A stretch of 64,000 bases of DNA. Source: a virus. How positions within the stretch are numbered: the stretch's first letter is position 1; every line of letters starts with the position of its first letter. The stretch lies in IMG/VR virus record IMGVR_UViG_3300028841_000327; one strand, 5' to 3'. Shown in pieces: positions 33,228 to 33,485 of the stretch. The notes below the pieces were generated by a model. That model was not told the DNA's origin, did no database searches, and saw only the letters and a list, made by a program, of their open reading frames with translations. Both the position numbers and the translations under genes were made by a program.

Positions 33228-33485
33228 TCAGGCGGCGAAGGCGTAGGCGCGGTTGCCGCCGGCCCCGACGTGGGGACTGAAGTAGACCTCGTCGACGTCG
33301 TCAGCAAAGGCGTCCATGTCGAGGCGCCGTCCGTCGCGATCGTAGGCCTGCCAGTCGTCCTTCGGCCGCCCAGTGTTGCGCGTCAAGCGAATGGCGATGT
33401 CGCGCGCGTCGCCGACGGTCTGGAACGGCAGCAGCTCGAGGTCGACGGGGACACCGCCGATGATGACGCGCAGTGGGTGGGTCAT
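33228..33485 (-). CDS. DUF2604-like ubiquitin-like protein (Ubl2) with GG plus C-terminal extension
   Basis: VIIGGVPV...TRNTGRPKDDWQAYDRDGRRLD...YFSPHVGAGG-NRAYAFAA. Confidence 0.65.
   Translation of the reverse strand: MTHPLRVIIGGVPVDLELLPFQTVGDARDIAIRLTRNTGRPKDDWQAYDRDGRRLDMDAFADDVDEVYFSPHVGAGGNRAYAFAA

Follow-up and report, generated by a model that had tools for sequence, protein, structure and literature searches.

The 64-kb stretch of viral DNA analyzed here (64,000 nt, hereafter the window) encodes an 85-aa ubiquitin-like (Ubl) precursor which is, as judged from sequence profiles and a structure model, a single-domain protein of the BilA/DUF2604 family with a beta-grasp core. The favored, albeit still tentative, explanation is that it serves as a BilA mimic, i.e., as a competitor or decoy toward the Bil enzymes of the host. 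A known Ubl family is met here in a new genomic, and probably also a new functional, setting.

The 85-aa reading frame is a real gene: its GC content by codon position (0.72/0.44/0.88) is typical for coding sequence in a window with 67% GC. The ATGA overlap between its start and the stop of the 133-aa gene upstream suggests that the two genes are probably translationally coupled (Table 1). A gene overlapping the Ubl start was found at the same position in L001, L003, L052 and L053, its equivalence being judged by position only, and the 133-aa protein itself received no assignment in Pfam, PHROG, PADLOC or Atlas.

Table 1. Coordinates of the Ubl gene, its parts and other features of the window.
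Feature	Coordinates	Strand	Evidence or remark
BilA/DUF2604-family Ubl precursor gene, 85 aa	33228..33485, stop included	(-)	ORF, codon-position GC, Pfam, profile, AF2, Foldseek
Predicted beta-grasp core, residues 1-75, including TRNTGRPKDDW (residues 35-45)	33261..33485	(-)	AF2 and motif alignment
Gly76-Gly77, conserved di-glycine, conjugation end in BilA	33255..33260	(-)	Family alignments and papers on BilA
Eight-residue tail NRAYAFAA, ssrA-like, predicted disordered	33231..33254	(-)	AF2, tmRNA-tag comparison
Ubl stop codon TGA	33228-33230	(-)	
Shine-Dalgarno-like GGAG, 6 nt 5' of the Ubl ATG	33492..33495	(-)	Direct sequence reading
Upstream 133-aa gene	33482..33883	(-)	Stop overlaps Ubl start as ATGA
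Two tRNA genes convergent with Ubl	33060..33221 (33060-33143, 33146-33221)	(+)	ARAGORN and Rfam tRNA model
PTH2-like peptidyl-tRNA hydrolase	32761-33054	(+)	
DUF433	35476-35928	(-)	
DUF1643	38217-39107	(-)	
DUF5131	41132-42451	(-)	
Array of 25 tRNA genes within 4.8 kb	4312-9090	(+)	
tRNA-Leu pair	26010-26200	(+)	
Probable JAB/JAMM metallopeptidase, 222 aa, candidate tail-trimmer	21225..21893	(+)	Prok-JAB, motif, JGI name
Minimal ThiF/MoeB-type adenylyltransferase, 195 aa, without Cys or E2 domain	24918..25505	(+)	Pfam ThiF E=1.1e-23
ADP-ribosylglycohydrolase	14616-15578	(+)	Pfam E=3e-31
167-aa ORF ending ...LLGSGG-stop	15635-16138	(+)	3' of the ADP-ribosylglycohydrolase gene
93-aa ORF ending ...LIYGGK-stop, CxC motif	46119-46400	(+)	No Pfam match
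108-aa repeat protein rich in Gly, Val and Asn (...VNGRRIVIEG...VNCGNVSGSVSG...)	23276-23602	(+)	No Pfam hit

The Pfam model DUF2604 (PF10790) matched residues 5–63 of the protein at 32.6 bits, above the cut-off of 25 (E=1.1e-7), which bears out an earlier note, made from the sequence alone, that had described a DUF2604-like Ubl with a di-Gly and an extension after it. In searches against the PDB, the single Ubl sequence retrieved the BilA chains 8tyx/8tyz at 2.7e-5, and a profile of its homologues (alignment A2) matched the same chains with E=1.5e-22 and 8u38/9d5b with ~2e-17; on these scores the Ubl assignment is well beyond chance. The AF2 model had a mean pLDDT of 85.8 and a pTM of 0.74, with averages of 89–96 for the blocks covering residues 1–70, a predicted order of strand-strand-helix-strand-strand and a C-terminal segment (residues 76–85) predicted as disordered with pLDDT below 50. 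The best Foldseek match of this model was BilA (8tyx_A) at a TM of 0.80–0.82 and an rmsd of 2.2 Å, followed by ubiquitins, the range for the two top BilA matches, 8tyx_A and 8tyz_B, being 0.77–0.82. The beta-grasp fold supposed in the note was thus recovered in the model, and the phage protein is closest to BilA both by sequence profile and by predicted fold. An NTGRPxxDW-type motif is common to the phage copies and to two BilAs encoded in Bil operons (P0070 and P0087, with NTGRPxxxWE), and in alignments A2 and A5 the GG of the Ubl (VGAGG, residues 73–77) falls in the columns of the family GG.

The profile search collected 1043 proteins, nearly all annotated as PF10790; no match to the Ubl was present in PADLOC, NCBIfam or PHROGs. 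IMG/VR scans with the target Ubl, P0064 and P0009 found no relatives, and neither the region nor the Ubl had a megablast/tblastn match among 50,697 phage records. A degenerate RNTGRPxxDW pattern produced 36 matches in the genome contigs, nearly all of them by chance, with two weak fragments fitting the family. In the family tree, composed of short proteins, the resolution was too poor to separate one phage clade from repeated captures. Three bacterial contigs that were looked up, those with P0046, P0087 and P0070, contain next to the DUF2604 gene Y4jH/BilB-like, Prok-JAB and BilD_N/Prok-E2_C/ThiF genes in the order DUF2604, Y4jH/BilB-like, small gene or Prok-JAB, then BilD_N/Prok-E2_C/ThiF, i.e., as BilA-BilB-BilC-BilD-type operons (L011, L014 and L015). 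On the evidence of profiles, Foldseek and these three operons, DUF2604 is the BilA family, and so the guess of a Bil-type relation made in the note holds.

The presence of residues after the di-Gly turned out to be the rule in this family. A recognizable GG was found in 121 of the 124 sampled members and was followed by 1 to 13 or more residues in 117 of them, four ending at the GG; the overhang comprised 2 residues in 71 and 4–14 residues in 32 proteins. In the published work, the C-terminal glycine of BilA is the residue that becomes adenylated, Ala98 follows the reactive Gly97 in E. aridi BilA, overhangs of 2–9 aa occur on some BilA homologues, and BilC pre-processes BilA and also cuts a BilA-GFP fusion. 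Since overhangs are common in the family and their trimming by BilC is published, residues after the GG are ordinary, and the DUB seems to be tolerant of whatever follows the Gly. A masked di-Gly, as read from the family alignments, is therefore the normal state of DUF2604 proteins and not a special switch.

In the Ubl of the window, VGAGG is followed by NRAYAFAA and TGA, and the note had seen in this tail an ssrA-like degron masking the di-Gly. The resemblance stood up to comparison, but the masking dissolved into the family norm of BilC-trimmed overhangs. The tmRNA tags from five high-GC genomes end with DETYALAA, ADSQYALAA, ...NFALAA, ...SFALAA and ...QYRLAA; YAFAA is identical to the tag ends [YF]ALAA at four out of five positions, with Phe for Leu, and the likeness is real at the sequence level. 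Fourteen of the 856 six-frame ORFs of the window end with AA, and only the Ubl with [LIVMF]AA or [YF]A[LIVMF]AA, where approximately 0.005 would be expected from composition, a post hoc figure because the pattern was set after seeing the tail. Among 127 crude gene calls the Ubl had the sole AA ending. The idea that the tail is left over from a tmRNA gene or overlaps the tRNA was rejected: 7 nt lie between its end and the tRNA, and the DNA coding for it shows no such origin.

The tail reads SRAYAFAA in P0001 (94% identity) and NSAHAFAA in P0002 (71%). In these three tail-keeping clusters, including the window, FAA is invariant, while the positions +1, +2 and +4 vary; the eight tail codons of the window and of L052 are separated by two non-synonymous and one synonymous change with FAA unchanged. 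Because the motif occurs in only three sequences, conservation of the tail amounts to background identity (6/8 residues vs 71% overall). P0003 and P0027, close kin of P0002 with 61–68% identity over the alignments, contain no NRAYAFAA-like tail: divergence begins directly after GGC GGC, and the ssrA-like end is replaced (loci L001 and L053) by the basic tails ASRGEHGRRRYN and ASRSNKHGRN. These overlap the ribosome site and the start of an inserted small gene, which makes the basic tail in these sister phages a by-product of gene overlap. With an unrelated tail in two sister lineages, the degron, if working, would be dispensable. The other phage-borne members either end exactly at the GG (P0006 and P0008) or carry unrelated tails, two of which also end with AA (P0009, ...FAEAA; P0064, ...GVLAA); of the roughly 7 phage lineages seen, 3 thus have AA-ended tails. 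As far as these comparisons go, the ending may act as a degron in this sub-lineage, without being a conserved part of the system. The inserted small gene of the two sister phages (L001:10260-10514 and L053:2917-3096), which separates the Ubl from the tRNA, is coiled-coil-like.

The window looks like a part of a large GC-rich phage, an assignment inferred from gene content, since no virion-structural domains (capsid, portal, terminase) were found among its Pfam hits. Its genes include DnaB, DUF433, DUF1643, a RuvA-like protein, PTH2, HNH, DUF5131, ADP-ribosylglycohydrolase, NUDIX, FHA and ThiF. The Ubl is located in a replication/early module together with DnaB, the RuvA-like gene, PTH2, DUF1643, DUF5131 and tRNAs. 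DUF5131 recurs in 123 phage records, and the matches of DnaB and DUF5131 were distant and taxonomically mixed. The flanking PTH2, DUF1643, DUF5131 and DUF433 genes are syntenic in related contigs, some of 118–200 kb with the same order around the Ubl, the synteny being kept in L001, L003–L005, L052 and L053. ARAGORN detected 29 tRNA genes in the 64-kb window, in keeping with a large phage that brings its own decoding set. The nearer of the two tRNAs convergent with the Ubl ends 7 nt from its stop; the pair is conserved in L003 and its second member in L001. ARAGORN reported these two as 'tRNA-???' with a 4-base anticodon (gacc) and as tRNA-His with the anticodon atg. The Rfam tRNA model fits both over the full length, with 17 nt and 5 nt where 7 and 3 are expected, and a 9-nt loop CUUAUGGCG is present in the second; they may be intron-bearing or expanded-loop tRNAs.

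A Bil operon is not present around the phage Ubl: no BilB, BilC or BilD adjoins it, its neighbors being the 133-aa gene, the tRNAs, PTH2 and the RuvA-like gene. None of the ~73 window ORFs scanned with Pfam has an E2-type domain (UQ_con, Prok-E2_A to E, BilB-like, Y4jH-like). The window covers 64 kb of a genome of roughly 125–200 kb, which leaves room for an E2 or a second E1 in the rest of the phage genome. The viral JAB that the note had placed at 21225 was substantiated as a probable JAB peptidase by a Prok-JAB match (E=9.8e-4, 19.4 bits, below the cut-off of 25), by the motif HSHPGYGPPMPSSTD with H51, H53, S62 and D65 invariant in 6 homologues, and by the JGI name RPN8/RPN11-like of a protein 99% identical to it. 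Its Atlas matches were viral Prok-JAB clusters with scores that serve as leads only; the AF2 model (pLDDT 58) was too weak to use, and the predicted complex of the JAB N-terminal domain with the Ubl scored 0.00, below the mark, which counts neither way on binding. An ORF with a TTG start at 21212–21886 was discarded as the JAB gene because it lies in the wrong frame. The best NCBIfam/PDB relatives of the ThiF protein were ThiF, MoeB, Uba4 and UbaA, not BilD; its GxGxxG is intact, the NCBIfam hits included the SAMP-activating E1 UbaA at E=1e-16, and the PADLOC hits were to the E1 part of CBASS Cap2-type 'E1-E2' models. The ThiF gene lies ~8 kb from the Ubl, as also seen in L001 and L003; together with the JAB gene, the three are distributed across 12 kb and do not all share one strand. 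A loose plus-strand cluster (21225–21893, 21890–22399, 23610–24290, 24555–24921 and 24918–25505) comprises the genes for the probable JAB, a NUDIX hydrolase, an FHA protein, small RHH-like and small Cys-rich proteins and the minimal ThiF.

A lone DUF2604 gene was also found in unrelated contigs (L006, L008–L010 and L013), whose phage nature was judged from gene content: beside DNA polymerase A, Thy1 and HNH in L006, among integrases and small ORFs in L008–L010, and beside Cpn10 and DUF1643 in L013. When all ORFs of these loci were compared with the window by BLAST, only the Ubl was common, plus DUF1643 in L013, meaning that there is no conserved linked partner; neither ThiF nor JAB was present near the DUF2604 gene in these five contigs. 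Several forms above the cut-off have lost the di-Gly (P0011, P0013, L066 at 2674–3249, and L068; e.g., ...MASICH...) and continue into a C-terminal extension of ~100 aa without a known family. Judged by this loss, the GG-less phage forms are non-conjugatable BilA-like domains. Two of them are from IMG/VR contigs of 177,603 bp (L066) and 132,407 bp (L068), with CheckV completeness of 70% and 49%, in which neither ThiF nor Prok-JAB was found, a result easier to reconcile with a binder than with a conjugated modifier.

Bil conjugates BilA to phage tail proteins and thereby blocks assembly. As a mimic of this defense Ubl, made by the phage as a normal pre-Ubl, the protein could through its kept NTGRPxxDW surface and LxxGAGG end engage BilC (DUB), BilD (E1) and BilB (E2) and thus compete with or titrate the host BilA, so that conjugation to phage tail proteins would be blunted. 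The tail would then be an ordinary pre-Ubl extension that a JAB peptidase removes before adenylation of the Gly; host BilC could do this, because it cuts BilA-GFP fusions, and the phage's own JAB might also trim it. In addition, YAFAA may make the uncleaved precursor a ClpXP-type substrate, as a lineage-specific extra and not as the core of the mechanism. Against mimicry it can be held that in principle a conjugation-competent copy is attachable to phage proteins by Bil with no obvious gain for the phage. A more elaborate version, for which the chances appear slim, is that phages have repeatedly captured BilA as a stand-alone anti-Bil decoy, either conjugation-competent or GG-less, and that here the tail has in addition become an ssrA-type degron, ClpXP clearing the uncleaved decoy, so that a copy would persist only if a JAB (host BilC or phage JAB) had engaged or trimmed it.

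The main rival to the BilA mimic, although a rather improbable one, is a phage-autonomous E1-only system for conjugation or sulfur transfer in the manner of SAMP/UbaA/HvJAMM1 or TtuB/TtuC, whereby the phage JAB would trim the tail, ThiF would adenylate Gly77, and the Ubl would be attached to phage or host proteins or would carry sulfur for tRNA thiolation. The UbaA-matching ThiF with its intact GxGxxG, which L001 and L003 also keep at ~8 kb from the Ubl, the probable JAB and the 29 tRNA genes are consistent with such a system, but the three genes are scattered rather than joined in an operon, the Ubl is a BilA-family protein and not one of the ThiS/MoaD/SAMP/TtuB type, and no thiolation enzyme (TtuA-type) was found among the ~73 ORFs. 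Moreover, ThiF and JAB are missing near the DUF2604 gene in the other phage-like contigs and altogether from the two IMG/VR records of 132–178 kb. The explanation put forward in the note, a hard-wired ssrA-type switch in which the precursor is destroyed by ClpXP if no JAB/DUB, be it the viral enzyme (21225) or host BilC, has taken off the tail, is weakly supported and appears unlikely. It draws on the match of YAFAA to real tag ends, on the predicted disorder that would make the tail accessible, on the ending being unique in the window (with the post hoc expectation given above), on the invariant FAA amid varying positions and on the two other AA-ended phage members. Yet the ending is kept in three close clusters and replaced by a basic tail overlapping an inserted gene in two sister lineages, P0006 and P0008 have nothing after the GG, tails in the family are the norm and vary freely, and the conservation seen in three sequences equals the background.

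The gene might also be a passenger, a remnant of a bilA captured from a host Bil operon and without a specific role. The nearest characterized relatives are indeed bacterial defense genes and no recognizable partner stands beside it, yet the gene is intact, coding-like and coupled to the upstream gene, its position is maintained in five clusters, down to 47% identity, without loss of the GG or the family motif, and independent phage lineages also retain such genes; a passenger role appears very unlikely. The note had further suggested that E1/E2 bound to the Ubl would be handed over to ClpXP. On general grounds this is mechanistically unlikely, since ClpXP breaks down only the chain that carries the tag and not its non-covalent partners.

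Compared to BilA (PDB 8TYX, 8TYZ, 8U38), the phage Ubl has in common the Pfam family, the predicted beta-grasp fold (TM 0.8), the NTGRPxxDW-type motif, the LxxGAGG end and a short extension after the GG, which in the studied systems is removed by BilC. In contrast to the Collimonas BilA with its two beta-grasp domains (Hör et al.), it has one. It also differs in that its gene is outside a bacterial defense island with no E2 in the 64-kb window, and in the length and ssrA-like end of its tail, 8 residues against the usual extension of 2. The ssrA tag of E. coli is reportedly AANDENYALAA, and ClpX is said to have degrons of the 'C-motif 1' class. The phage tail resembles this tag as a C-terminus, predicted to be unstructured, ending in aromatic-Ala-hydrophobic-Ala-Ala-COOH, but it is genomically encoded and not added by trans-translation, has Phe and not Leu at -3, is without the upstream AANDENY-type adaptor site and is not conserved in sister phages, the likeness being one of sequence only. 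Eukaryotic and viral ubiquitin precursors, such as the baculovirus v-ubi, have residues after the GG that are removed by a DUB. The phage Ubl would be comparable to v-ubi as a virus-encoded copy of a host modifier made as a precursor, although there is no sequence relationship beyond the fold; since the host pathway here is itself an antiviral defense, a decoy role would be more direct than for v-ubi. E1-only Ubl systems are represented by the archaeal SAMP/UbaA/HvJAMM1 and by TtuB/TtuC of Thermus. As in these systems, one genome codes for a small E1 of the ThiF/MoeB type with no E2 beside it, for a JAMM peptidase and for a beta-grasp protein with a GG end, but the phage genes are unclustered, the phage Ubl is of the BilA type and no sulfur-transfer partner was found. 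The lambda-type tail-assembly Ubl (TAPI) goes together with the JAB domain of gpK. Here, too, one phage genome encodes both a beta-grasp protein and a JAB domain, but the Ubl is in the replication module and not in the tail module, and it belongs to DUF2604 and not to the tail-assembly family.

DUF2604 was mentioned by name in no paper of the searched literature, and no published description of phage-encoded BilA homologues or Bil inhibitors was found in the searched papers and reviews, subscription journals lying outside both searches. The only related published remark is the speculative suggestion that tail-assembly proteins might act against Bil through their DUB domains. An uncharacterized Pfam family is now tied to BilA, and the lone conserved phage BilA homologue, together with its GG-less relatives, represents a concrete and cheaply testable candidate for a Bil countermeasure. 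A countermeasure based on a BilA copy would parallel the viral ubiquitin genes and the ISG15 antagonists of eukaryotic viruses. The ssrA-like tail poses a separate small question, namely whether the extension of a pre-Ubl can at the same time act as a signal for degradation; the combined decoy and degron, if true, would be the first known Bil inhibitor and the first protease-timed Ubl precursor in a bacterial virus.

The Ubl had been announced in the note as the second of its kind in the window, but the family-profile search of all six-frame ORFs found no other DUF2604 gene. The 167-aa ORF at 15635–16138 may be what was meant by the first Ubl, or it may be simply another GG-ended protein; neither this ORF nor the one at 46119–46400, both ending in or near GG, received a family or Atlas assignment. 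The 108-aa repeat protein, when inspected by eye, appeared to be beta-helix or bactofilin-like.
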